Translations under genes and position numbers: made by a program
DNA from: Candidatus Portnoybacteria bacterium
GTDB taxonomy: Bacteria > Patescibacteriota > Minisyncoccia > Portnoybacterales > GWB1-42-6
DNA length: 64,000 nucleotides
Assembly: GCA_028688325.1 (NCBI GenBank)
Contig: JAQTYI010000001.1
Span: 302,620-366,619 of the forward strand
Reading direction: 5' to 3'
Notes under the pieces: model-generated
Seen by the model: only the letters and a program-made list of their open reading frames with translations
Databases searched by the model: none
Told to the model about the DNA's origin: nothing
Part shown: in pieces, positions 12,040 to 55,925 of the stretch
Layout of the letters: each line of letters opens with the position of its first letter
How positions within the stretch are numbered: the first letter of the stretch is position 1

Positions 12040-12684
12040 TTACTTCAAATTTTTTAAATAATCGGAAGTTATTTCGGACAAAGACATAATTAGATTATTG
12101 GTCGGATAAAGTCCGTTTTTATCTTTGACTAAGCCGATGCAAAACATATTGGCGCGTTTGGCTCCCTCCATGCCGTTGATGCCGTCTTCAATGACCACGC
12201 AATCTTGCGGCGCAACGCCTATCTTTGAAGCGGCCAGTAAAAAGCTTTCCGGGTCCGGCTTACCATTGGCCACCATATCGCCGCTCACGACCGCGCTAAA
12301 ATAAGGAGTTATTTTTAATGCTTCAAGAACGGAATGCACATAATCCGAAGTTGATGCCGAAGCCAAAGCCAGGGGATATTTTTCTTCGTATAATCTTTTT
12401 ATCAAGTCGACTGAGCCGGGGATCTCGTCAACTCCTAAAGAGGCGAGTTTAGCCATTTCTCCCCATTTTTCTTTCATCAATCCGTCCAAATCATAAGCCG
12501 CGCCCTGTTGTTTTAGTAAAACATCAAAAAATTCCCCGGTTCTGACCCCGGAATATTTTCGGGTGAGTTCTTCCGGCGTGATATTTACGCCGAATCGGTT
12601 CAGTATTTTAGCTTCAACCGCAGCGTGGAGTTTTTGGGTGTCGGAGATAACCCCGTCCATGTCAAAAATGATTCCTTTTACCAT
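12040..12684 (-). CDS. HAD-IA family hydrolase (beta-phosphoglucomutase-like)
   Basis: N-terminal DxD motif IIFDMDGVISDT. HAD motifs II to IV. Confidence 0.8.
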   Translation of the reverse strand: MVKGIIFDMDGVISDTQKLHAAVEAKILNRFGVNITPEELTRKYSGVRTGEFFDVLLKQQGAAYDLDGLMKEKWGEMAKLASLGVDEIPGSVDLIKRLYEEKYPLALASASTSDYVHSVLEALKITPYFSAVVSGDMVANGKPDPESFLLAASKIGVAPQDCVVIEDGINGMEGAKRANMFCIGLVKDKNGLYPTNNLIMSLSEITSDYLKNLK

Positions 12685-27240: not shown

Positions 27241-27310
27241 GCCAGGAAGTGAAAATTCGGCAGTGACTTAATTTGCCGCCATGGCGGCAGCCGAATTTCT
27301 ACTTCCTGGC
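27241..27310. mobile_element. Mini-MITE copy c2 (two terminal repeats around a 26-bp palindromic core)
   Basis: GCCAGGAAGTGAAAATTCGGCAG / GCCGAATTTCTACTTCCTGGC. The right repeat encodes the last codons ARK and the TAG stop of uvrB. Confidence 0.75.
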
Positions 27311-29453
27311 AAGTTTTTTTAATTTGTCTATTTCTTCTTTCAGCCGCATGGACTCATCAAATTGCAGATTGCGGTTGGCCAGGTCCATTTTAAATTGCAG
27401 TTCGCGGATATATTCTTTGAGATAGTTCGTGTCCTCCGAAGCTTTAGCGAAGGAGGATCTGCCGGTTTTCACTTCCGCCAGAACTTCCACAATGCTTGCT
27501 CGAATATCCTTAGTTATGGCTTGTGGCGAGATGCGATGTTTTTTATTGTATTCTTCCTGTGTCTGGCGGCGGCGGTTGGTTTCATTGATGGCGCGGCGCA
27601 TCGATTGGGTTACCTTATCTGCATACAAGATTGCCTGGCCATCAAGGTGGCGCGAAGCGCGACCGATGGTCTGGATAAGAGTGGTTTCATTGCGCAAAAA
27701 TCCCTCTTTGTCCGCGTCCAGAATCGCCACGAGCGAAACTTCGGGCAAGTCCAGCCCTTCGCGCAAAAGATTTATGCCGACCAACACATCAAATTCTCCT
27801 TGGCGCAATTTTTTCAAGATTTCCGGCCTCTCCAGCGTCTTGACCTCTGAGTGCAGGTAAGCCGTCTTGATCTTTTCTTCTGTCAGATATTCGGCCAGAT
27901 CCTCGGCCATTCTTTTGGTGAGAGTCGTTACCAGCACCCGCTGTTTTTTTGCCACGCGTTTTTTGATCTCTTTAATGAGATCGGGGATCTGGTTCTGGCT
28001 GGGGCGGACATCGATTTTCGGGTCCAAAAGCCCCGTCGGACGGATGAGTTGTTCAATCACATATTTATTTGTCATCCCGGGTCACCCGCCTCGCCCGACG
28101 AGCGTGCGAGTCGAGGCGGGTGACCCGGGATCCAGATTTGGAAATTTGGGCCTGGATTCCCGCTTCCAGTTTACCCCGCACTTGATGCGGGGCGGGAATG
28201 ACAGAAGAGAAAGGTTTACAATTCACGGCTTGTGTTTTGGCGGTCTCGTATTTCCCCGGCGTGGCGGAGGTATAAATAACCTGGCTTATCTTTTTTTCAA
28301 ATTCCGGGAATTTCAGCGGCCGGTTATCCAGGGCGCTGGGCAAGCGGAAGCCAAAATCAATGAGCGTTTGTTTGCGCGAACGGTCGCCTTCATACATCGC
28401 GCCGATCTGGGGCACGCTCATATGCGACTCATCAATTATCATCAAGAAATCATTCGGATAATAATCCAGCAGGGTGGAGGGGGCGGTGCCGCCTTGGCGC
28501 AGTTCCAGGTGCCGGGAATAATTTTCAATGCCGTGGCAATAGCCGACTTCTTTTAACATTTCCAAATCATAATTGGTGCGCCGGCTCAGGCGCTCGGCTT
28601 CCAAACTTTTGCCATCTTTCCCCAATCTTTTTAATTGTTCGTCCAGTTCGGCACGGATGTTGGCGATGGACGCGTCTATTTTTTTCTGCGGCGAAACCCA
28701 AAATTTCGCCGGATATATCCTGGCGGAATTTATTTGCTCATCTTGTCCGGCAAAGATGTCTTTTAAGGATCGCAGGGGCTTTGCGCTGATGCGGGTTATT
28801 TTATGGGCTTCAAATTCGGCCTTAATTGTCAACTCGCCCGTGGCCAGCCATATCTCAACGATGTTGCCGCGCACCCGGTATGTGCTGCGTTTAAAATCAA
28901 TATCGGAGCGAGTATATTGCAATGCGGCCAGCTGGCGCAAAAAAACTTGCCGGGAAATTTCTTGGCCTTGTTTTATCTCCACGCTCAATCCCTGATAGTC
29001 ACCGGGCGAGCCGATGTTGTAGATGCAGGAAACCGACGCCACCACGATAGCGTCTTCGCGCGTCAGCAAAGATTGCGTGGCGGCATGGCGCAGCCGGTCC
29101 AGCTCCTCGTTTATCTTGGCGTCTTTTTGTATGTAGGTGTCAGTGGTGGGAATATATGCTTCCGGCTGGTAGTAGTCATAATAGGAGACGAAATAGTTTA
29201 CGGAATTATTTGGAAAGAATTCTTTGAATTCCTGGTATAATTGCGCGGCCAAGGTTTTGTTGTGAGAAATTATCAGCGTGGGCTTTTGCACTTTTTCAAT
29301 GACATTGGCCATAGTGAAAGTTTTGCCGCTGCCGGTCACGCCCAAAAGCACCTGGTGCTTGGCGCCGGCGTTCAGATTTTTGACTAATTTATTTATGGCG
29401 TTCGGCTGGTCGCCTGTCGGCTTGTATGGGGCGTGGATTTTGAATTGCGGCAT
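27299..29453 (-). CDS. uvrB: Excinuclease ABC subunit B (UvrB). Reading frame broken by a roughly 140-bp family-1 repeat at about 28068-28207, leaving two overlapping ORFs (27299-28075 and 28065-29453). Possible pseudogene or sequencing frameshift
   Basis: N-terminal ORF has helicase motifs [10 protein letters not shown] and DESH plus the beta-hairpin region. C-terminal ORF resumes at [13 protein letters not shown] and ends with the UvrB C-terminal coiled coil. The N-terminal ORF reads through the repeat and stops in a different frame. Confidence 0.8.
28068..28207. repeat. Family-1 repeat inserted inside uvrB
   Basis: TTGTCATCCCGGGTCACCCGCC...CCCGCACTTGATGCGGGGCGGGAATGACAGAAG. About 140 bp, not a multiple of three. 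Confidence 0.8.
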
Positions 29454-29501: not shown

Positions 29502-29554
29502 GATGTCCGACATCCCGAATATTAATGCATTTTAATTTTTGGATGTCGGACATC
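29502..29554. promoter_or_regulatory. Two copies of a perfect 13-bp palindrome GATGTC-N-GACATC (centres 40 bp apart) in the divergent uvrB/ruvA promoter region. Candidate operator
   Basis: GATGTCCGACATC at 29502-29514 and GATGTCGGACATC at 29542-29554. Each is the reverse complement of the other. Confidence 0.5.
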
Positions 29555-30158: not shown

Positions 30159-31343
30159 ATGGATAAACAAACTTGGAATAAATTTGTTTTAGAAAATGGT
30201 GGTAGCTTTTTGCAATCCTGGGAATGGGGCGAATTTCAAGAAAACATTGGCAGGCGTGTTTTTAGGTTTTTGCATTGTCATCCCGAATTTATTTCGGGAT
30301 CTGATTCAGAGGCCCTGAAACAAGTTCAGGGCGACAAAGGGGGCTGGCGAGCTCAATTCATTGCTAACAAACTACCTGGTGTTAATAAATTTTATTGGCA
30401 TTGTCCGCGCGGGCCGGTTTTGGCCAATGGCGATGAGCAAATGGCAAATAGCCAAATACGGAAAATCATAGACGCGGTTAAAAAATCAGCGGATAAAAAA
30501 GTTATATTTTTTCGTTTTGGGCCCGAGTGGCCTCTTGATTGTCATTCCGGGCTTGACCCGGAATCCAGATCTGGATCCCGCATCGAGTGCGGGATGACAG
30601 AAAAGGATTTAAAAAATATTGGCTTCAAGCAGCTATCATACGATATCGAGCCCTCACAAACGCAAATTTTAGATATTTCAAAAACCGAAGACGAATTGTT
30701 GGCGCAGATGCACGAAAAATGGCGCTACAATATCCGCCTGGCGCAGAAGAAGGGTGTGCAGATAAAATTCACGCAGTCAGAGTGCGTGAATTTTGAGTAT
30801 TATTTTGAGGAATTTTATCGGCTGGTGAGCCAAGGCACTTCGGAGCGCAACAATATCAAGCATCATCCGAAAGAATATTATAGAAAGCAGTTGAAAATTG
30901 GCGCTAAATCTCCCCTGACCCCTCTTTACGAAAGAGGGGAAGACCCTCCTTTTGTAAAGGAGGGCGAGGGAGGATTTAGAGAAACATTATTTGTGGCCGA
31001 ATATGAAGGCAAGGTTATTGCGGCAAATATTGTCGTGATCTTTGGCAATCGCGCCACTTATCTTCACGGCGCCACAAGCAGCGAGCATCGCGAAGTTATG
31101 GCGCCGCATCTTTTGCAATGGGAGCAGATAAAATATGCCAAAGCGCAGGGCTGTTCGGAATACGATTTCTGGGGAGTTGTGAACGAACACACCTTGGACA
31201 GACGCGGCAAATCCTGGGAGGGCTTCACTCGCTTCAAAAAGGGCTTTGGCGGTAAAGAAGCGAATTACATCGGTTATTGGGATTATCCATTTGACAAGAA
31301 GTGGTATTCGTTATATAGATTAGTGCAAAAGTTTAGGAGATAA
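30159..31343 (+). CDS. FemAB-family peptidoglycan bridge aminoacyltransferase-like protein, carrying two in-frame repeat insertions
   Basis: FemAB N-terminus (WNKFVLENGGSFLQSWEWGEFQ). Family-1 insert translated as DCHSGLDPESRSGSRIECGMTEKD. Family-2 insert translated as SPLTPLYERGEDPPFVKEGEGGFRE. Confidence 0.7.
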   Translation: MDKQTWNKFVLENGGSFLQSWEWGEFQENIGRRVFRFLHCHPEFISGSDSEALKQVQGDKGGWRAQFIANKLPGVNKFYWHCPRGPVLANGDEQMANSQIRKIIDAVKKSADKKVIFFRFGPEWPLDCHSGLDPESRSGSRIECGMTEKDLKNIGFKQLSYDIEPSQTQILDISKTEDELLAQMHEKWRYNIRLAQKKGVQIKFTQSECVNFEYYFEEFYRLVSQGTSERNNIKHHPKEYYRKQLKIGAKSPLTPLYERGEDPPFVKEGEGGFRETLFVAEYEGKVIAANIVVIFGNRATYLHGATSSEHREVMAPHLLQWEQIKYAKAQGCSEYDFWGVVNEHTLDRRGKSWEGFTRFKKGFGGKEANYIGYWDYPFDKKWYSLYRLVQKFRR

Positions 31344-31510: not shown

Positions 31511-32296
31511 ATGAGTGATTTTGAAGAAAAAATTCAAGAGTTATTAAAATTAAAAGGTTTGGATTTTGTTCAGGGTCTTTTGAAGATAGAAGAAGATCGC
31601 TTTAATAAGGAATTTTTAAAGGGTTCTGTATACGAAGAAATAAATGCTGATTTTGGGCTTTTCCCTCCCTTAAAAATTTATCCAGTTTATTTTTTGGGCA
31701 ACATAGCAAGACCGGAGAATAAAAGAGTTTTTATAGGAATAAATCCTGGTTATGATAGAAGCAATTCTTTGGAACAGAAATTTTTAGAAGAAAGAGGCTG
31801 TTTTGATGGCTATTGTAATATTTTTGGAGATTTTTTAAGAAAAAAACACAAAGGGCTTTCCTCTAAATATTTTTCTAATATAGCAGGTTTTTTAAAGCGT
31901 TTTTACGAATTAGACGAAATAAATAATTGGACTTGGTTTCAGGATAATATTATAAATTTGGATTTCATTCCTTATCATTCAAAAAATGCCGCCGGTATAA
32001 GAATAAATAATATCGAGAAGTTCAGAAAAGTGTATTTTCAGATATTATTAAAATTTTTAGAACATATTAATCCGCGTGACTATATTTTTGTAAATGGATT
32101 CCCAACTTTTGAAGGATATTTCCAAAATGATATTTTTATTAAAGCTATACAATTTAAAAAGGTGGATAATTTTTGGATAGGGAATATTGGCAGATTTAAA
32201 TTTATAGGATTGCCGTTTTTAACTCAAGTATCTGGTGGCAAGGATAATTTAGTAAATAATATTCGTAGATATTTAGCAGATGAAGCAACTTCTTAA
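31511..32296 (+). CDS. Hypothetical protein with low-GC coding sequence
   Basis: 261-aa ORF, markedly more AT-rich than its neighbours. No motif recognised. Confidence 0.45.
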   Translation: MSDFEEKIQELLKLKGLDFVQGLLKIEEDRFNKEFLKGSVYEEINADFGLFPPLKIYPVYFLGNIARPENKRVFIGINPGYDRSNSLEQKFLEERGCFDGYCNIFGDFLRKKHKGLSSKYFSNIAGFLKRFYELDEINNWTWFQDNIINLDFIPYHSKNAAGIRINNIEKFRKVYFQILLKFLEHINPRDYIFVNGFPTFEGYFQNDIFIKAIQFKKVDNFWIGNIGRFKFIGLPFLTQVSGGKDNLVNNIRRYLADEATS

Positions 32297-33779
32297 AAAA
32301 CTGATTCCCGACAGGATGCTGAGCATCTATCATTTCAAATTGGCGCTTTTGGGGGCGCTGGTTTTTGGTTTCCCGAGTAGGAAATTGAGGGTTATTGGCG
32401 TGACGGGAACAAAAGGGAAGTCGACCGTGGTGATGTTGGCGGGGAAGATATTGCAGGAGAATATAACCTCACCCCAACCCTCTCCTTCAAAAGGAGAGGG
32501 GGAAGTTTTTAACCCCCCAACCCCCCTTTGCGTAAGGGGGGATGAAAACGGGGATTTTTGTGAAAGCGGGCAAGCCGAATTTGCCCCCCTTGTAAAGGGG
32601 GGCGCAGGGGGGTTAAAAAATGTCGGATGGATCTCTTCGCTCACGATAAACGACGGGAAAAATGAAACGATGAACCCCTATCATATGACGATGCCAGGCA
32701 GGTTTTTTATTCAAAAGACGCTGGCGCAGATGATAAAAAACGGCTGCGAATACGCGCTGGTTGAAGTGACCAGCGAAGGAATAAAACAGCACCGGCATCG
32801 CTTCATCAACTGGGCGGGCGCGGCGTTCACTAACCTCGCGGCTGAGCATTTGGAAGCGCACGGCGGGTTTGAAAATTACAGAAAAGCCAAAGAGAAACTA
32901 TTTGCCGCCGCGGCAAAAAATGAAGATAGTTTCGGGGTGTATAACCTGGATGATGAAAATGTCGGTGAGTTTTTGAAGTATGGGATCGCAAGAAAAATTG
33001 GATACGGAATTCTTAACCCCCCAACCCCCCTTTGCGTAAGGGGGGATGAAAACGGGGATTTTTGTGAAAGCGGGCAAGCCGAATTTATCGTAAAGGGGGG
33101 CGAAGAGGGGTTAAAGAATTTACGAATTTCCAATATTCAATTATCTGGCAGTGGCTCGGAATTTGTCATCAACGGCGTGGAATTTAAAACCAAATTCTTG
33201 GGTGAGTTCAATATTTATAACTGCGCCGCCGCCGCGGCTATCGGGCAGGTCTGCGGCGTGCCGCTAAAAGTTGCGGCGCAGGCGCTCGCAAAGATAAAAT
33301 CTATTCCGGGTCGATTGGAAATAATTGATGAGGGTCAGGATTTTACGGTCGTGGTTGATCTGGCGCACACGCCGGATTCTTTTGAACAAGTTTTCAGATT
33401 GTTCGGAGAGTTGAAGCAAAATAAAATCATCTCGGTTTTCGGCGCGGCCGGCGGCGGGCGCGATAAATGGAAGCGGCCGGAACTTGGCAGAATCGCCTCG
33501 GCTTATTCGGACCAGGTTTTTATTACCAATGAAGACCCGTATGAGGAGGACCCTCTTAAAATAGCGGATGAAATATTGGCCGGGTGCGATAAGAGTAAAA
33601 CCGACATAATCTTGGACCGCCGGCAGGCCATTGCCCGCGCCTTGTCTTTGGCGCGCAAGGGTGATATAGTTTTAATCCTCGGTAAAGGAACGGAACAAAC
33701 GATGGTTGCCAGCGATAAAAAATATGATTGGGATGACAGAAGGGTCGTTCGCGAGGAATTGAAAAAAATAGTTCATTAA
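32280..33779 (+). CDS. murE: Mur ligase family protein (MurE-like UDP-MurNAc-tripeptide synthetase) with two in-frame copies of a roughly 100-bp GC-rich repeat
   Basis: P-loop VIGVTGTKGKSTV. DLAHTPDS. C-terminal SVFGAAGGGRDKWKRPELGRIA...ITNEDPYEEDP. Both inserts translate to the identical stretch NPPTPLCVRGDENGDFCESGQAEF. Confidence 0.7.
   Translation: MKQLLKKLIPDRMLSIYHFKLALLGALVFGFPSRKLRVIGVTGTKGKSTVVMLAGKILQENITSPQPSPSKGEGEVFNPPTPLCVRGDENGDFCESGQAEFAPLVKGGAGGLKNVGWISSLTINDGKNETMNPYHMTMPGRFFIQKTLAQMIKNGCEYALVEVTSEGIKQHRHRFINWAGAAFTNLAAEHLEAHGGFENYRKAKEKLFAAAAKNEDSFGVYNLDDENVGEFLKYGIARKIGYGILNPPTPLCVRGDENGDFCESGQAEFIVKGGEEGLKNLRISNIQLSGSGSEFVINGVEFKTKFLGEFNIYNCAAAAAIGQVCGVPLKVAAQALAKIKSIPGRLEIIDEGQDFTVVVDLAHTPDSFEQVFRLFGELKQNKIISVFGAAGGGRDKWKRPELGRIASAYSDQVFITNEDPYEEDPLKIADEILAGCDKSKTDIILDRRQAIARALSLARKGDIVLILGKGTEQTMVASDKKYDWDDRRVVREELKKIVH
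32470..32630. repeat. Family-2b GC-rich repeat inside murE (copy 1)
   Basis: CCCCCCAACCCCCCTTTGCGTAAGGGGGGATGAAAACGGGGATTTTTGTGAAAGCGGGCAAGCCGAATTT... identical over about 70 nt to the copy at 33015-33115. Confidence 0.8.
33015..33115. repeat. Family-2b repeat inside murE (copy 2)
   Basis: Same sequence as copy 1. Confidence 0.8.
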
Positions 33780-34085: not shown

Positions 34086-35039
34086 TTAATTTTGCAGTTG
34101 TTTGTTTATTTGTTTTTTGATTTTTGGCGGGCAATCAATGTCTTGTCTTTTTTTCAAATAGCCGAGCAGAGGGGTTAAGAGCTGGTTAGATATCTTTTTC
34201 TCAATGCCCATGGCGTAGGCGATAATGCCAAAGACCTGTTTTTCGGAAACGGAATTATCCATTTTTGCCCGGCCGATCATTCCGCGAAACCGCCTTATTT
34301 TTTTAGGCGGAATTTTAGGTTTTTTATCAACGATATTTATTCCTGTAATGCGCAAGGCGCCTTTTTTTATTGAACCATAGCGGGTTTTTTCGGGATTGAT
34401 CTTGAATCCAGCTTCTTCCAGCTTCTTGGCGATAATATTCTCAAAGCTTTTTGGTATTTTGACGCTGGAACTGAAAGTCAAGTCATCCACATAACGCGAA
34501 TAGCGCAATCGATGTTCAGCCACCTTCTGGTTGCTAAAAGATAAGTCAATATTCAGCAGATTTGTGGCTCCCAGAAGAGCATTAAATATGGCCAATGAGG
34601 TTGGCGCTCCTTGCGGAAGTTGGTTGCGGAAGGTGGTTAATTTGGTTAGAATCTTGGCCAGTTGCGGCGAAGCGTTCATTATTCTGAAAAACCAGTAAAC
34701 CATTTTATCGTCAACGGTCGGATAAGCGTTCTTTATGTCGATAGTAATAAGGTATTTGCTTTGTTTGTGGACAAGGGCGTTAGTCCGAGCGGATTTTTTG
34801 GCTATTCCGCCATGCGCTTGAGACGGGATGCAAAAAGGCAATTCTTTTAACAAGATTCGCTGAATTTTTTTCAGCGGTTCTTCGGGTGCCGCAATCTCGC
34901 GCTTACTGCCGTCTGATTTTTTCTTGTACCAGACACGATAATGGCTCTTAATGTTTTGTGACAACATTAGTAATTCCGTAGTGTCGAGATCGAACATTTT
35001 AGAAAAATTCTCTAAAGAAATTTTATTTTTCTTTTTCAT
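34086..35039 (-). CDS. Reverse transcriptase, retron-type (317 aa)
   Basis: Reverse transcriptase motifs: A (ITIDIKNAYPTVD), B' (LPQGAPTSLAIFNALL), C (YSRYVDDLTFSS, the YxDD box), D (GFKINPEKT) and an ITG/VTG-like segment (LRITGINIV). Strong Shine-Dalgarno sequence AAGGAGG. Compact retron size. Confidence 0.75.
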   Translation of the reverse strand: MKKKNKISLENFSKMFDLDTTELLMLSQNIKSHYRVWYKKKSDGSKREIAAPEEPLKKIQRILLKELPFCIPSQAHGGIAKKSARTNALVHKQSKYLITIDIKNAYPTVDDKMVYWFFRIMNASPQLAKILTKLTTFRNQLPQGAPTSLAIFNALLGATNLLNIDLSFSNQKVAEHRLRYSRYVDDLTFSSSVKIPKSFENIIAKKLEEAGFKINPEKTRYGSIKKGALRITGINIVDKKPKIPPKKIRRFRGMIGRAKMDNSVSEKQVFGIIAYAMGIEKKISNQLLTPLLGYLKKRQDIDCPPKIKKQINKQLQN

Positions 35040-36348: not shown

Positions 36349-36486
36349 TTGTCATCCCGGGCCTGACCCGGGATCCAGGCCCTGAAGCCCAACCGTCGCT
36401 AAAGCTTTGGCGAGGCAAGCAAGTTCAGGGCGACAAAAAACCTGGATTCTCCCCGCACTTGATGCGGGGCGGGAATGACAAAATGA
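36349..36486. repeat. Family-1 repeat ending inside the annotated 5' end of the next gene
   Basis: TTGTCATCCCGGGCCTGACCCGGGATCCAGG ... CCCCGCACTTGATGCGGGGCGGGAATGACAAAATGACAA. Confidence 0.8.
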
Positions 36487-37871
36487 CAATCATGAAACTA
36501 CATTTTCACGGCGGGGCGGAGGCGGTAACAGGCGTCAATTATCTGCTGGAAACCGGGAAATCAAAGATTTTGGTTGATTGCGGTTTGTTCCAGGGGCCGA
36601 AGGAGTTGGAAGCCAGGAACTCAAAGCCATTCGAGTACGATGCCAAAACCATCGACGCGGTGATAATCACGCACTCGCATCTTGATCATGTTGGCCGCTT
36701 GCCCCAGCTCATCGACGCGGGATTTCGCGGCAAGATATTTGCCACGCCTCCGGCGGTTAATTTCACGCGCCTTATTTTGGAAGACAGTGTGCGGGTTTTG
36801 GCGGAAAAAGCCCAGCATGCGGGAGTCGTGCCGATGTTTTCCCAAGAAGAAGTCAACCAGGTGATGAGCCAGTTTGTGCCGGTTGATTATTATAAAAAAA
36901 CCAAAGCCGCGGAAGATATTGAATTTACATATCATAACGCGGGTCATATTCTGGGCTCGGCCATCGTTGAGCTTGACTCCGAAGGAAAGAAAATAGTTTT
37001 TTCCGGTGACTTGGGTCATCCGCCCGCGCCATTGTTGCGCGCGCCGGATTATTTAATCTGCGCCGATTATGTGCTGGTGGAGTCAACTTATGGCGACCGA
37101 AACCACGAATCGCCGGAAGAAGGCGAAGAAAGAATAGAGAATGTCATCGAGGACACCATTTCCAAGGGCGGCGTCTTGATGATTCCCAGCTTTGCCATGG
37201 AACGCACCCAACAGCTGCTTTATCATATAAATGACCTGATCGAACACAAGCGCATTCCGAGGATACCTGTTTATATTGATAGCCCCTTGGCTACGCATAT
37301 CACTGAAGTTTATAAAAAATATCCGCAATACTATAACAAAGAGGCGGCTTCCGAGATTGACTCGGGCGATGATGTTTTTAATTTTCCAGGACTGCGTTTC
37401 ACTCTTTCTTCCAAGGAATCAAAAGAAATAAATGATTCGCCGTCTCCCAAAGTTATCATCGCGGGGTCGGGCATGAGCAACGGCGGCCGCATCGTGCATC
37501 ATGAAGTGCGGTATCTGAGCGACCCGAAAAACACCTTACTGATGGTGGGCTATCAGGCCGAAGGTACGCTGGGCCGGCGCATCGCCGACGGGCAGAAAAG
37601 GGTTGTTGTTCTGGATCAGGAAGTGGAGGTGCGGGCAAAAGTGGAAAAAATTTCCGGCTACTCGGCGCACGCCGACCAGTTTTATCTGATGGACTGGATA
37701 AAGAGTTTCAAAAAAATCGCTTGCGGCGATGGCAGCGGCAAGCATAAATTGACGAAAGTTTTTGTGGTGCAAGGCGAAGCCAAACCGGCCGCGGCTCTGG
37801 CCAGTTTGATCCGCGATGAGCTTGGCATTACTACGGAGGTGCCAAAGCTCGGTGAAACGGTTGAGCTTTGA
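36483..37871 (+). CDS. Beta-CASP metallo-beta-lactamase-fold ribonuclease (RNase J / CPSF-like)
   Basis: HxHxDH motif (ITHSHLDHVGRLPQL). Beta-CASP motifs. C-terminal RMBL-like region. The start was trimmed to the ATG after the repeat. Confidence 0.75.
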   Translation: MTIMKLHFHGGAEAVTGVNYLLETGKSKILVDCGLFQGPKELEARNSKPFEYDAKTIDAVIITHSHLDHVGRLPQLIDAGFRGKIFATPPAVNFTRLILEDSVRVLAEKAQHAGVVPMFSQEEVNQVMSQFVPVDYYKKTKAAEDIEFTYHNAGHILGSAIVELDSEGKKIVFSGDLGHPPAPLLRAPDYLICADYVLVESTYGDRNHESPEEGEERIENVIEDTISKGGVLMIPSFAMERTQQLLYHINDLIEHKRIPRIPVYIDSPLATHITEVYKKYPQYYNKEAASEIDSGDDVFNFPGLRFTLSSKESKEINDSPSPKVIIAGSGMSNGGRIVHHEVRYLSDPKNTLLMVGYQAEGTLGRRIADGQKRVVVLDQEVEVRAKVEKISGYSAHADQFYLMDWIKSFKKIACGDGSGKHKLTKVFVVQGEAKPAAALASLIRDELGITTEVPKLGETVEL

Positions 37872-44313: not shown

Positions 44314-44441
44314 GCCAGGTGGTGAAAATTTGACGCTTTAATTATAAATATGCGAGTATCTGGTAATATAAAAAGTAGGGAATAATACAAGGATTAATAA
44401 TTTTTTAATGAGTAATTCTTGGTCAAATTTCTACTACCTGG
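44314..44441. mobile_element. MITE copy f
   Basis: GCCAGGTGGTGAAAATTTGACGC ... GTCAAATTTCTACTACCTGG, then T and the ATG of the downstream gene. Confidence 0.8.
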
Positions 44442-44442
44442 T

Positions 44443-45558
44443 ATGAAAAAACAGGTAAAAGCGCTGGTTTTGCTCTCGGGCGGCTTGGATTCTATCCTGG
44501 CCGTCAAATTGTTATTGGAGCAGGGAATCATTGTTGAGGCGGTGAATTTTCGCACTAATTTTTGCGGGCCGAGCAAGGCGCGCCTCGCCGCAAAAATGCT
44601 CGGAGTAAACTTAAGAGAGGTGAATATCAGGAAAGATTTTTTGCCCATTTTGAAACACCCCAGGCACGGCTACGGCACGGGCTTGAATCCTTGCATCGAT
44701 TGCCACGCTTTGATGCTGAAAAAAGCCGGGGAAATTATGCGTGCGGAGGGATTTGATTTCATTGCCACGGGCGAGGTGCTGGGCGAGCGGCCAATGAGCC
44801 AACATAAAAAGGCCTTGGATATTGTGGCTAAAGACGCGGATATTGTCGGCTATCTTTTGCGGCCGCTGTCGGCTAAATTGCTTGAGCCGACCATCGCGGA
44901 GAATGAAGGGGTGGTGGATAGGGAAAGATTATTGAATATTTCCGGCCGGAGCCGCAAAATACAGATGGCACTGGCCGAGCAATACGGCATCAAAGAATAT
45001 CCGACCCCTGCCGGCGGCTGCGCGCTGACGCAAAAGGGTTTTGCGGACCGCTTGCGCGAGCTGATGGCCAACAAGTCGGATTTTAATTCAGACGATGTGG
45101 ATCTGGTGGCGATAGGGCGGCATTTTTGGGTCGCCGTTTCTTGTCATCCCGGACTTGATCCGGGATCCAGTATCTCGAATGAAGACATGGATTCCCGCTT
45201 TCCCTCCTTCGCCTGCGGCTTTGGAAGGGCGCGGCGCGGGAATGACAGAAGAGAGAGCGGTGTCCAAATTATTCTCGGCCGCAACCAGGAAGAAAATAAT
45301 ATTTTAGAAAACATAGCCGGGCAAGGTGATATTTTGGTTGCGCCGGATAATTTTGTCGGACCTCTGGCTTTGGTCCGCGGCGCTACTTTTTGTCATCCTG
45401 AACTTGGTTCAGGATCTCAAGACAAGGGATCCCGAAACGAGTTCGGGATGACAGAAAAAGATATAATTGACAAAGCCAAGGAATTAATCTTGCAATTTTC
45501 GCCCAAAGCGAAGGACTTGGGAAAAGAGGATTTAAGGTTTAAGATTAAATTAATATGA
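44443..45558 (+). CDS. PP-loop ATP pyrophosphatase (ThiI/MnmA-like tRNA sulfurtransferase family) with two in-frame family-1 repeat insertions
   Basis: SGGLDS PP-loop. NPCIDCH. ATGEVLGERPMSQ. Inserts translated as CHPGLDPGS...GNDRRE and CHPELGSGSQDKGSRNEFGMTEKD. Confidence 0.55.
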   Translation: MKKQVKALVLLSGGLDSILAVKLLLEQGIIVEAVNFRTNFCGPSKARLAAKMLGVNLREVNIRKDFLPILKHPRHGYGTGLNPCIDCHALMLKKAGEIMRAEGFDFIATGEVLGERPMSQHKKALDIVAKDADIVGYLLRPLSAKLLEPTIAENEGVVDRERLLNISGRSRKIQMALAEQYGIKEYPTPAGGCALTQKGFADRLRELMANKSDFNSDDVDLVAIGRHFWVAVSCHPGLDPGSSISNEDMDSRFPSFACGFGRARRGNDRRESGVQIILGRNQEENNILENIAGQGDILVAPDNFVGPLALVRGATFCHPELGSGSQDKGSRNEFGMTEKDIIDKAKELILQFSPKAKDLGKEDLRFKIKLI

Positions 45559-53442: not shown

Positions 53443-54485
53443 TGGGTGATTATACAATACAATTTTTATTGAATATTATGTCAAAAATCAAAGAATTGTT
53501 AGCGGGTAAAAATGATCAAATCGACTACGAAAAAATAGTTAATGAATACCCCTGGATAATAAAGAAAGGGCAGAATTGTATTTTAAGCCCGGATAGCGAT
53601 GGTTTGTTATGCGGATTATTTATGTCGTCATATTTGGGATGGAAGATAAAAGGGTTTTACGACGGTAAGGTTATGCTGTTAGATAAAAAAACCTCTGTTA
53701 AAGATTGTATTTTTTTAGATATGGAAATTTTTAGAGAAGAGATAAAGAGTGTTGGGCATCATATGGTGCAATTTAATAAAAAGAAAAAGCCCAGCAATTG
53801 GGATAATTTTAAAAATTGTATTCAGGCGAATAATTTAAGAAACTACGATGGCTATAATGATTTTCGTCTAAAATATCCCTTGGCCACAATTCATTTATTA
53901 ATGGGAATAGTTGGTTCAAAAATAAAATTGACGATTCCAAAAACTGCAATTTGTCCACTGCTTTATGTCGATGGCGTGTTTAAAAATTTATTTAGCTATC
54001 CTGAGAACTGCATTGATTGGTTAAGATATCTGAAAGCAGATTTGAGCGCCAACAAATTGAACGATATATTTTTTAACGAACATTATTCTGTTTATGATTT
54101 AATGCTTGCCTTGAAGGATTTTTTCACAAGGATTGACGAAATAAGCGACGGTCGAGGGAGAAATGATAAAATAAAAATTTCTGATTCAAAAGGAAACCCA
54201 ATCAATATTATTAAAAAAGATGATGTTTATGAAATTGATAAAGAAGAAAGTAAAAAGGCGATCATCTTTTTAGAAATTTTGTCGAAGTTAACTAAGTGGG
54301 GATATGATAAAAATGATTGGCAATGGAATAATTTAAAACTTTATCGTTTCAATAAAAGCAGTATTCAGCCAAGTAATAGAAATTTTGAAGAAATGATAAA
54401 AAACAATCCGCTGTCTTGGGCTATGACCAGCGGATTGGCGATAGAATATACCTTAGAAGATAAGAAAAATGCTCTATTAAAATAA
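53442..54485 (+). CDS. Hypothetical low-GC protein (347 aa) with a DHH-like acidic motif series. Possible nuclease partner of the adjacent methyltransferase
   Basis: ATG overlaps the argS stop (TAATG). ILSPDSDGLL...IFLDMEIF...VGHHMV resembles DHH motifs I to III, but spacing is atypical and the third motif has Gly in place of the usual Asp. Clearly lower GC than the flanking genes. Confidence 0.4.
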   Translation: MGDYTIQFLLNIMSKIKELLAGKNDQIDYEKIVNEYPWIIKKGQNCILSPDSDGLLCGLFMSSYLGWKIKGFYDGKVMLLDKKTSVKDCIFLDMEIFREEIKSVGHHMVQFNKKKKPSNWDNFKNCIQANNLRNYDGYNDFRLKYPLATIHLLMGIVGSKIKLTIPKTAICPLLYVDGVFKNLFSYPENCIDWLRYLKADLSANKLNDIFFNEHYSVYDLMLALKDFFTRIDEISDGRGRNDKIKISDSKGNPINIIKKDDVYEIDKEESKKAIIFLEILSKLTKWGYDKNDWQWNNLKLYRFNKSSIQPSNRNFEEMIKNNPLSWAMTSGLAIEYTLEDKKNALLK

Positions 54486-55925
54486 TGTTTTATTGAATAC
54501 ACCTTCTTCTTTTAGGCGTTTTTTTGCCAATTCACAGTATTCAGTTGATGTATCTATTCCAATGTAATTTCTATTTAATTGAATAGCAGCCAAGGCGGTT
54601 GTGCCGCTTCCAATAAATGGGTCTAAAACAACGCCATTTTCCGGGCAGAAGCATTGGATAAAGTCGAGGGGAAGTTTATCGGGAAATGTTGCCGGATGCT
54701 GGTGTTTAAGGCGAGTGCCATCTCCCGCCGTCAGATATTCCCAAATGGTGCCGCGACATTTAGTTGGGTTAATAGTGATCGGCCGAGTGGCAATCCTCAC
54801 GCCATTAGTAAGGCGAGTGCCTCCGCCGGTCAATGTTTTACCGCCGTGTTTTGAGGGAATTTTCAGGGGTTCCTTATTAAAGTATCGCGGCCTCTCTCCT
54901 TTTAGAAAAATCGGCATATATTCATGGTCAACGCGAAATCGTTTATTCCACCAGGCGCCCTCTGCGCCGTATTTTCTGTAAATAACCGTTTCGAATAATT
55001 TAAAGCCGGCATTATCAACCCAGTCCACTATTGTTTTAAACGAGGTTAGCGATTTGCCGAAGTTTTTTGTTTGATCCTGAATAACCATGGCGGCAATGCC
55101 GCCTTCTTTTAATACGCGATATATTTCTTTACCGGTAGCATGTAAATCAAAAGTAAATCCATTATATTTTCTGATTCCGTCATAGGGCGGGGAGGTGACA
55201 ACTAAATCAATTGAGTTATCAGGGATTTTTTTTAGTTCCGCAACTGAATCGCCACAAATAATTTTATTTAGAGGCAGCGCCCCATATTTTTTTGTTTCCT
55301 TTTGCGGCAATAACTCTTCTGCTTGTAGCTCCTTTTCGTTTTTTATTATATCTATAACAATACCTTGTATAGAAATTTCTCTGCCTTTCTTAATTATTAT
55401 TGGTTCAATGGTTTTGTTTGCCGGCTGTAAACGGATATACCCTTTTTCTTTATAGTATTTTTTTAGTGTTGCTTCACAACTATCTATAAGGGCTACTACT
55501 TTTTGTCCATTTTCGGCTGTTTTTTGTTGTCGCACTAAAACAATATCCCCGTCGTTTATATTCTCATCAATCATGCTGTTGCCAATTACACGAAGAGCAT
55601 AGACCTCCGATGACGGGGGAACCTTACTTTTTGGGATAGCGATCGTTTCTCTTTCTTGAATTGCCTCAATCGGCTGACCAGCCGCGATTTGTCCTAGTAG
55701 AGGTACTCTGACTAAGTGGGACGGTTCTGATATTGAAATCCCTCTTGCGCGTCCAGGAATTTTTTCTATGTATCCTTTATTTAGGAGCATATCAAAATGT
55801 TCGTGCGCAGTCGACGGAGAGATTCTAACTCGGCGAGCTATTTCTCGTTCTGTTGGGGCTACGCCATTTTTTAGTATGGCTTTATTTATAAGGTCTTTAA
55901 TTTGTTTTTGCCTTGGGGTAAGCAT
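54477..55925 (-). CDS. Fusion protein: complete LexA (winged helix-turn-helix plus S24 autopeptidase) joined to a C-terminal DNA amino-methyltransferase (N6-adenine/N4-cytosine, SPPY type)
   Basis: LexA helix-turn-helix MLTPRQKQIKDLINKAILKNGVAPTEREIARRV. Ala-Gly cleavage site IAAGQP. Catalytic Ser (VIGNSM) and Lys (EATLKKY). Then a linker. Methyltransferase motif IV DLVVTSPPY and motif I DPFIGSGTT. Confidence 0.75.
   Translation of the reverse strand: MLTPRQKQIKDLINKAILKNGVAPTEREIARRVRISPSTAHEHFDMLLNKGYIEKIPGRARGISISEPSHLVRVPLLGQIAAGQPIEAIQERETIAIPKSKVPPSSEVYALRVIGNSMIDENINDGDIVLVRQQKTAENGQKVVALIDSCEATLKKYYKEKGYIRLQPANKTIEPIIIKKGREISIQGIVIDIIKNEKELQAEELLPQKETKKYGALPLNKIICGDSVAELKKIPDNSIDLVVTSPPYDGIRKYNGFTFDLHATGKEIYRVLKEGGIAAMVIQDQTKNFGKSLTSFKTIVDWVDNAGFKLFETVIYRKYGAEGAWWNKRFRVDHEYMPIFLKGERPRYFNKEPLKIPSKHGGKTLTGGGTRLTNGVRIATRPITINPTKCRGTIWEYLTAGDGTRLKHQHPATFPDKLPLDFIQCFCPENGVVLDPFIGSGTTALAAIQLNRNYIGIDTSTEYCELAKKRLKEEGVFNKTLF

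Follow-up and report, generated by a model that had tools for sequence, protein, structure and literature searches.

Rickettsia palindromic elements (RPEs) are short, multi-copy palindromes, many of which lie in frame within unrelated housekeeping genes and are translated (reviewed in PMC10969869). MITEs (miniature transposable elements with inverted repeats), such as Correia/NEMIS, ERIC, BOX and the Coxiella QMITE, are non-autonomous, have terminal inverted repeats and form stable hairpins; in bacteria they are found near gene starts, and they can disrupt open reading frames (ORFs) or fuse with them (PMC10969869). Repetitive extragenic palindromes (REPs), as defined in PMC3733652, lie outside genes and are tagged at one end by GTAG or CGTC. 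The present report concerns a repeat family bounded by TGTCAT and ATGACA in a 64,000 nt stretch of the genome of a Candidatus Portnoybacteria bacterium (contig JAQTYI010000001.1 of assembly GCA_028688325.1, positions 302,620 to 366,619; hereafter the window, in whose coordinates all positions are given), and in particular the copy that separates its uvrB gene into two ORFs. For a member of the candidate phyla radiation (CPR) with a reduced genome, the question is whether the only UvrB has just been lost or has been re-engineered.

Comparison with described repeat systems

Likened by behaviour and not by sequence, the TGTCAT family appears closest to RPEs and to those MITEs that fuse in frame. 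It is a multi-copy palindrome (13 copies in 64 kb, folding z = −7.35) and, like RPEs, includes copies that are translated in frame, namely four others in two genes of the window (a FemAB-family gene and a ThiI-like gene) and those in the UvrB genes of related bacteria. These copies contain no stops, and the FemAB pair has no counterpart in the ortholog of the closest relative, whereas the copy in uvrB of this genome is out of frame. Further differences from RPEs are the host, which belongs to an unrelated phylum (Patescibacteria), and the GC-rich, modular structure of widely varying length (60–165 nt), with a hairpin within a loop. REPs and bacterial interspersed mosaic elements (BIMEs), which are mobilised by REP-associated tyrosine transposases (RAYTs), also consist of GC-rich hairpin units in composite arrays, but the TGTCAT/ATGACA termini and the intragenic position of 5 of the 13 copies place the family outside that definition of REPs. 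Terminal inverted repeats are shared with MITEs. Unlike MITEs, however, the TGTCAT family varies in length by growth of its loops and not by internal deletion. No consistent target-site duplication was found, and no transposase, parent insertion sequence or RAYT-like gene was found among the ~30 window proteins scanned.

Template switching at quasi-palindromes perfects imperfect hairpins, and often adds or removes bases, giving rise to frameshifts. The uvrB element resembles the product of such an event in that a perfect 18 bp stem in its third hairpin runs through what is loop sequence in the other copies. Neighbouring sequence is not the source of the new 36–37 nt, however, so that template switching alone would be insufficient and a nested insertion would also be needed. 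The gene itself recalls coupled split genes (e.g., those of Nanoarchaeum) in having its break at a domain boundary and adjacent, overlapping ORFs, but the uvrB split is not conserved across lineages, and its two parts are known from sequence alone. Literature searches found no description of comparable repeats in CPR/Patescibacteria or of a split uvrB.

UvrB is encoded by two overlapping ORFs

The two ORFs (designated N-part and C-part) lie on the minus strand in different frames. The N-part (28065–29453) specifies 462 aa and the C-part (27299–28075) 258 aa. In searches of the PDB, the N-part matched UvrB residues 4–404 (E 5e-158) and the C-part residues 405–657 (E 8e-83), and Pfam domains were assigned accordingly: ResIII/DEAD and UvrB_inter (the UvrA-interaction domain) in the N-part, Helicase_C and the UvrB motif in the C-part. 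All parts of UvrB, i.e., both helicase lobes, the UvrA-interaction domain and the C-terminal motif, are covered by the two ORFs together, and a preliminary description of this locus as a uvrB gene divided between two frames is borne out by the ORF list and by both searches. Residues 1–417 of the N-part correspond to domains 1a, 2 and 1b, and residues 418–462 are 45 residues encoded by the repeat. The C-part contains the Helicase_C lobe (domain 3), the UvrB motif and the C-terminal helix. The break falls exactly at the short linker that joins the ATPase lobes, and no single polypeptide carries both lobes, as a UvrB protein would.

In the N-part, translation passes into the element at S-V-I-P-A (VIPAPHQ...RVTRDDK), continues for 45 codons and ends at a TAA (28067–28065) located 5 nt past the element. 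The C-part begins at an ATG (28075–28073) within the terminal ATGACA of the repeat, 5 nt upstream of that TAA, and the ORFs overlap by 11 nt (ATGACAAATAA, 28065–28075). Both the premature stop and the restart at an ATG formed by the repeat terminus had been noted previously, and both are seen at these positions.

A product identical to the 462 aa N-part, including its tail and stop, is found under two NCBI accessions on two contigs of 0.2–1 Mb (P0049); it is recorded in GCA_028710785.1 (contig JAQTTM010000001.1, 788,852 bp), a metagenome-assembled genome of Candidatus Portnoybacteria. NCBI names it generically, as a 'DEAD/DEAH box helicase family protein', and there is no product on record in the protein collection for the C-part, so pathway reconstructions would miscount nucleotide excision repair in this organism. 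Neither uvrA nor uvrC lies within the window. The exact 22 nt flank of the uvrB element has no match in JGI metagenome contigs.

Structure of the repeat element

The preliminary description had placed a repeat of this family at the junction of the two ORFs, at 28065–28207. An element of the family is indeed present there, but those limits were slightly generous, and it occupies 28070–28203 (134 nt), consisting of TGTCAT, three hairpins and ATGACA. The predicted minimum free energy is −82.9 kcal/mol over 176 nt (z = −7.35 relative to shuffled controls). Hairpin 1 (28158–28197) has TCCCGC/GCGGGA arms, hairpin 2 (28130–28157) has ATCCAG/CTGGAT arms, and hairpin 3 (28076–28129) has CCCGGG arms around 42 nt (28082–28123). 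A nested hairpin, CCCCGCA-CTTGA-TGCGGGG (28174–28192), is located inside the loop of hairpin 1.

A copy of the same element occurs in uvrB of a related bacterium (locus L082, encoding protein P0008), and a module-by-module parse identified eight fixed modules common to the two: TGTCAT, TCCCGC, GCGGGA, ATCCAG, CTGGAT, CCCGKG, CMCGGG and ATGACA. They differ in their loops. The loop of hairpin 1 is 28 nt versus 4 nt in L082 (+24), and that of hairpin 2 is 16 nt versus 4 nt (+12), both of which are frame-neutral. The loop of hairpin 3 is 42 nt versus 5 nt (+37), the usual loop being 5 nt, and this is the only difference that breaks the frame. Six other copies in the window have a 5 nt CTTGA loop at the equivalent hairpin. 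The enlarged hairpin 3 folds as a perfect 18 bp stem with an 18 nt loop, and its stem has no second occurrence in the window or in any of the relatives' loci that were retrieved. An arm of this hairpin also introduces a TGA (28082–28084, minus strand) into the frame of the C-part, three codons before its ATG. Removal of 133 or 136 nt produces a single ORF and removal of 134 nt does not, in agreement with the earlier view that the length of the repeat disrupts the reading frame.

Comparison with UvrB genes of related bacteria

The repaired UvrB protein was aligned with 36 close homologs (66–82% identical), taken from the top 55 hits. The inter-lobe linker, which follows SATPGKYE..K[ST], varied from 0 to ~90 extra residues and was in frame in all 36. 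When the repaired protein was searched against genome contigs, the relatives were 52–62% identical among the matches listed. The linker could be located in 11 of the relatives' loci and was in frame in each of them; it was not locatable in four others. A second scan of metagenomes, using the C-terminal 77 aa, gave 12 loci, eight with a located linker, and all eight were in frame. No other split UvrB was found among the 36 aligned homologs or the 11 loci with a locatable linker.

Two relatives carry the same element in frame, with lengths of 61 nt (L082, protein P0008) and 109 nt (L083, protein P0032), and their UvrB proteins are ~70–74% identical to that of the window. Its translation reads KSPQSVIPAKAGIQNTGSRVKHGMTNKYIVEQL in P0008 and QIANRKSLKSVIPA...GPGMTNRYVIEQL in P0032. 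The entry junction (Q-x-x-N-x-K-x-x-x-S|VIPA) and the exit (GMT|N[KR]Y.. EQL) are identical in all three, and the ten residues that precede the element align without gaps with P0032 (QIANRKSLKS). The element as a whole looks old, or fixed at this site, since it is present in frame at the same junctions in L082 and L083, and the recent insertion proposed in the preliminary description is not supported. The linker is evidently a hotspot at which repeat turnover, as judged from these alignments, is ongoing.

Apart from the single break of the frame, no signs of pseudogene decay, such as surplus substitutions, additional stops or further indels, were detected. At positions conserved in the clade there are 12 departures in the N-part, against 10 in the closest homolog (P0001, locus L084; 74% identical by BLASTP and 82% in the multiple alignment), and four in the C-part, against three in P0001. 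All invariant residues are retained in both halves.

One homolog in the P0001 cluster (P0123, 665 aa) was considered as a possible presence/absence polymorphism and was rejected, as it is truncated by a contig end. In the relatives, UvrB also accepts insertions of variable length at another site, which comes just behind LLDY[FY] of the N-terminal lobe (alignment columns 341–357) and where up to ~17 extra residues are found; in the genome under study this site is empty.

Origin of the frame break and fate of the gene

The simplest history is probably that of an old, in-frame element, the third hairpin of which was enlarged later. The genome carries many GC-rich, modular palindromic repeats, one family of which, TGTCAT...ATGACA, would be tolerated in genes while it remains in frame, and would then add a translated segment to the protein. 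The inter-lobe linker of UvrB appears to be a long-standing insert site in this clade. The resident element would have kept its termini and three stems while its loops grew. Two of the increments (+24 and +12) are multiples of three; the third, from a 5 nt loop to a perfect 42 nt palindrome (+37 nt), would have shifted the frame by one and placed the TGA in the downstream frame. The added 37 nt would be younger than the in-frame state, and may have originated by insertion of a nested hairpin, by template switching in the quasi-palindrome, or by both. Standard translation would then yield a 462 aa N-terminal fragment with a 45-residue tail coded by the repeat, and the 258 aa domain 3 part, which supplies half of the ATP site, would no longer be fused to it. 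The reading we favour, with moderate confidence, is that the split is a real and recent enlargement of a hairpin that has inactivated or badly impaired uvrB, making it an incipient pseudogene. A recent disruption is preferred over a tolerated arrangement because no other split UvrB was found among the aligned homologs and the loci with a locatable linker. So understood, the locus would be a clean, datable case of a translated palindromic repeat that has evolved in place by loop growth and broken a gene.

Several observations weigh against this reading. The overlap of stop and start is well suited to translational coupling, and the lack of excess substitutions in either half would suit a functional two-piece gene equally well. 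The linker of the closest homolog, P0001, contains other repeat families and not this element, so that re-insertion of the element at a preferred site keeps a small probability. Finally, the two accession records of the 462 aa product may not be independent, and they compare assembled sequence at the level of the product.

The split would be an artefact if an assembly or consensus error, or a minority allele, had replaced a dominant sequence that is truly in frame. Sequencing and assembly are difficult in perfect GC-rich palindromes and in repeated modules, the split is known from assembled sequence and not from reads, the exact-flank scan of JGI metagenomes gave no independent copy, and the C-part product is missing from the protein collection. 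When all 1 nt deletions and 2 nt insertions across 28000–28300 were simulated, however, a single ORF (717/718 aa) was restored only within an 18 nt stretch, 28067–28084. Indels further upstream cannot rescue the gene because the right arm of the enlarged hairpin sets the TGA in the frame of the C-part. The rescue stretch has runs of 3 nt only and includes CCCGGG, which is fully complementary to the opposite arm, and ATGACA, the terminus of the family. There, the sequence CCCGGGATGACA|AAT AAA TAT is colinear with CACGGGATGACA|AAC AAG TAC of L082 and CCCGGGATGACA|AAC AGA TAC of L083. The indel inside the GC-rich hairpin that had been suggested previously is thus at odds with the relatives and with the family consensus, and a simple indel error appears unlikely from the bases themselves. 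Modules are shared with other copies over ~30 nt of exact identity (in the one case measured), which is too short to mislead an assembler, and the enlarged stem is novel sequence that does not duplicate its neighbours. The same shortened product occurs under two accessions, and sister records from the same accession block have SPAdes-style contig names, which suggests Illumina data with low indel rates. Indel errors do not seem common in the assembly either, because the ~30 other window genes checked are intact. An artefact is, on this evidence, quite unlikely. Recent insertion of the whole element, out of frame, into a clean linker would agree with the recent activity of the family (the closest relative's ortholog lacks the FemAB copies) and with the absence of the element from the closest UvrB homolog. 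It conflicts with the position and frame of the junction, which are identical to those of L082 and L083, with the gapless ten residues shared with P0032, and with the sharing of all fixed modules and the confinement of the frame break to one loop, and we consider it very improbable.

Functional two-piece expression is an unlikely but more serious alternative, in which both halves come from one mRNA, translation terminates at the TAA, re-initiates at the ATG supplied by the repeat, and the lobes assemble in trans so that nucleotide excision repair is kept. Besides the 11 nt overlap and the lack of excess substitutions, it is favoured by a cut that falls exactly at the linker, where relatives accommodate 0 to ~90 additional residues. 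Short overlaps between genes are frequent in the window (e.g., 40460/40463 and 45555/45558), and a translating ribosome would be expected to melt the hairpin that buries the start. On the other hand, a recent lesion would equally show no decay, and neither the 36 homologs nor the loci with a locatable linker include a second split UvrB. The ATP site of UvrB has to be built by domains 1a and 3 together (PMC3458569), there is no sign that they bind as separate chains, and a working UvrB cannot consist of the N-part alone. No promoter-like site is present upstream of the C-part, and the 25 bases that precede it are rich in GC and fall inside the hairpin, the upstream regions of other genes being generally AT-rich; independent initiation is improbable for these reasons. 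Termination-reinitiation at ATGACAAATAA would be the only plausible route to the C-part.

Recoding, by a programmed +1 frameshift or by translational bypass of the hairpin, would give a full-length UvrB. Bypass of GC-rich hairpin inserts occurs in T4 gene 60 and in the mitochondria of Magnusiomyces, and the required +1 shift would fall in a short stretch before the stop (GAC AAA TAA), just downstream of a strong hairpin. Yet re-pairing from AAA to AAU is poor, a prfB-like stimulatory element is missing, the permissible stretch is only ~15 nt, and the take-off and landing codons do not match; within 28067–28084 (ACC CGG GAT GAC AAA TAA) there is no +1 site competent for re-pairing. The remaining intragenic copies can be read through in the frame of their host genes, pointing to ordinary translation, and recoding is scarcely credible here.

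Two further routes to a UvrB product were considered and rejected. A promoter or Shine-Dalgarno sequence belonging to the C-part is not supported, given the absence of a promoter-like site and the GC-rich, hairpin-buried start; a well-placed Shine-Dalgarno match is also missing in 26 of the 27 other genes listed. Intron-like removal of the element at the RNA level is inconsistent with the other intragenic copies, which are open in their host frames.

The TGTCAT repeat family in the window

The uvrB event is an ordinary kind of mutation, and the surrounding repeat biology is more interesting. The 13 TGTCAT-bounded copies delimited in the window are GC-rich hairpins of 60–165 nt, and nearly all have the termini TGTCAT(C/T)CC... 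and ...GG(A/G)ATGACA. The 30 nt right end of the uvrB element occurs three times in the window, against an expectation of zero. A T is always found 5′ of the element and a purine 3′, with no consistent duplication, and the in-frame copies are 60, 61, 63 and 109 nt in length, which leaves no constant length for an element together with a target-site duplication. An Rfam search over the uvrB element gave no family match, only sub-threshold noise from miRNA hairpins.

Apart from the uvrB copy, the intragenic copies are two in the FemAB-family gene (30159–31343; copies at 30276–30340 and 30540–30599) and two in the ThiI-like gene (44419–45558; copies at 45142–45247 and 45391–45453). All four are open in the frame of the host gene, as the preliminary description had stated for the other intragenic copies of the window. 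The FemAB copies read CHPEF... and CHSGL...GMT, and the ThiI-like copies CHPGL...GNDR and CHPEL...GMT. The closest relative's ortholog (L084) lacks the FemAB pair, and these copies are therefore recent, in-frame insertions.

A more speculative proposal, and a rather doubtful one, is that this CPR lineage has a two-piece UvrB in which the repeat that splits the gene also supplies the second start, that reinitiation proceeds via the melted hairpin, and that the TGTCAT family is an undescribed RPE-like system. If this were true, the family would remodel surface linkers of core Patescibacteria proteins, occasionally splitting them so that their domains are translated separately.

Four genes have their start codons 0–12 nt from the ATGACA end of an intergenic copy: a VanZ-like gene (47887), the ORF at 36459–37871 (36475/36483), argS (51820) and yebC (10460). 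For the VanZ-like ORF, the ATG of the element is the first possible start, as it is for the C-part of uvrB.

Other features of the window

A second repeat family, consisting of hairpins of C/G runs (e.g., AACCCCCCTTTGCGTAAGGGGGG), is likewise translated in frame. A Mur-ligase gene (32280–33779) contains two copies of 77 nt (32506–32582 and 33010–33086), which are 99% identical and 504 nt apart, another is in the FemAB gene (30904–30985), and in the closest relative (L084) this family occupies the linker of UvrB. A third family (CATRCCAGGTAGTGAAAATTYGRC) occurs as inverted pairs that bracket gene ends (27025–27054/27136–27165 and 27238–27272/27288–27317). One of these copies contains the stop codon of uvrB (27299–27301) together with the final codons of the gene (..LARK*).

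The divergent uvrB-ruvA intergenic region contains two 13 bp near-palindromes, GATGTCCGACATC (29502–29514) and GATGTCGGACATC (29542–29554), which are 40 nt apart. Neither has another exact copy in the window, and they could represent an operator pair (an SOS box?) or a long stem.

In a window-wide survey of 28 start codons, almost none had a Shine-Dalgarno match, and the upstream sequences were generally AT-rich. TATAAT-like hexamers are found a few bases before the ATG of several genes (e.g., those with starts at 12684, 55925 and 59356). This pattern of upstream bases suggests leaderless or Shine-Dalgarno-independent initiation.

A lone 317 aa reverse transcriptase ORF (RVT_1; 34086–35039, minus strand) adjoins the Mur-ligase gene, and may be part of a retron, of a diversity-generating element or of the remnant of a group II intron. 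A 482 aa ORF (54477–55925, minus strand) combines LexA DNA-binding, S24 peptidase and N6/N4 DNA methylase domains, an unusual fusion.

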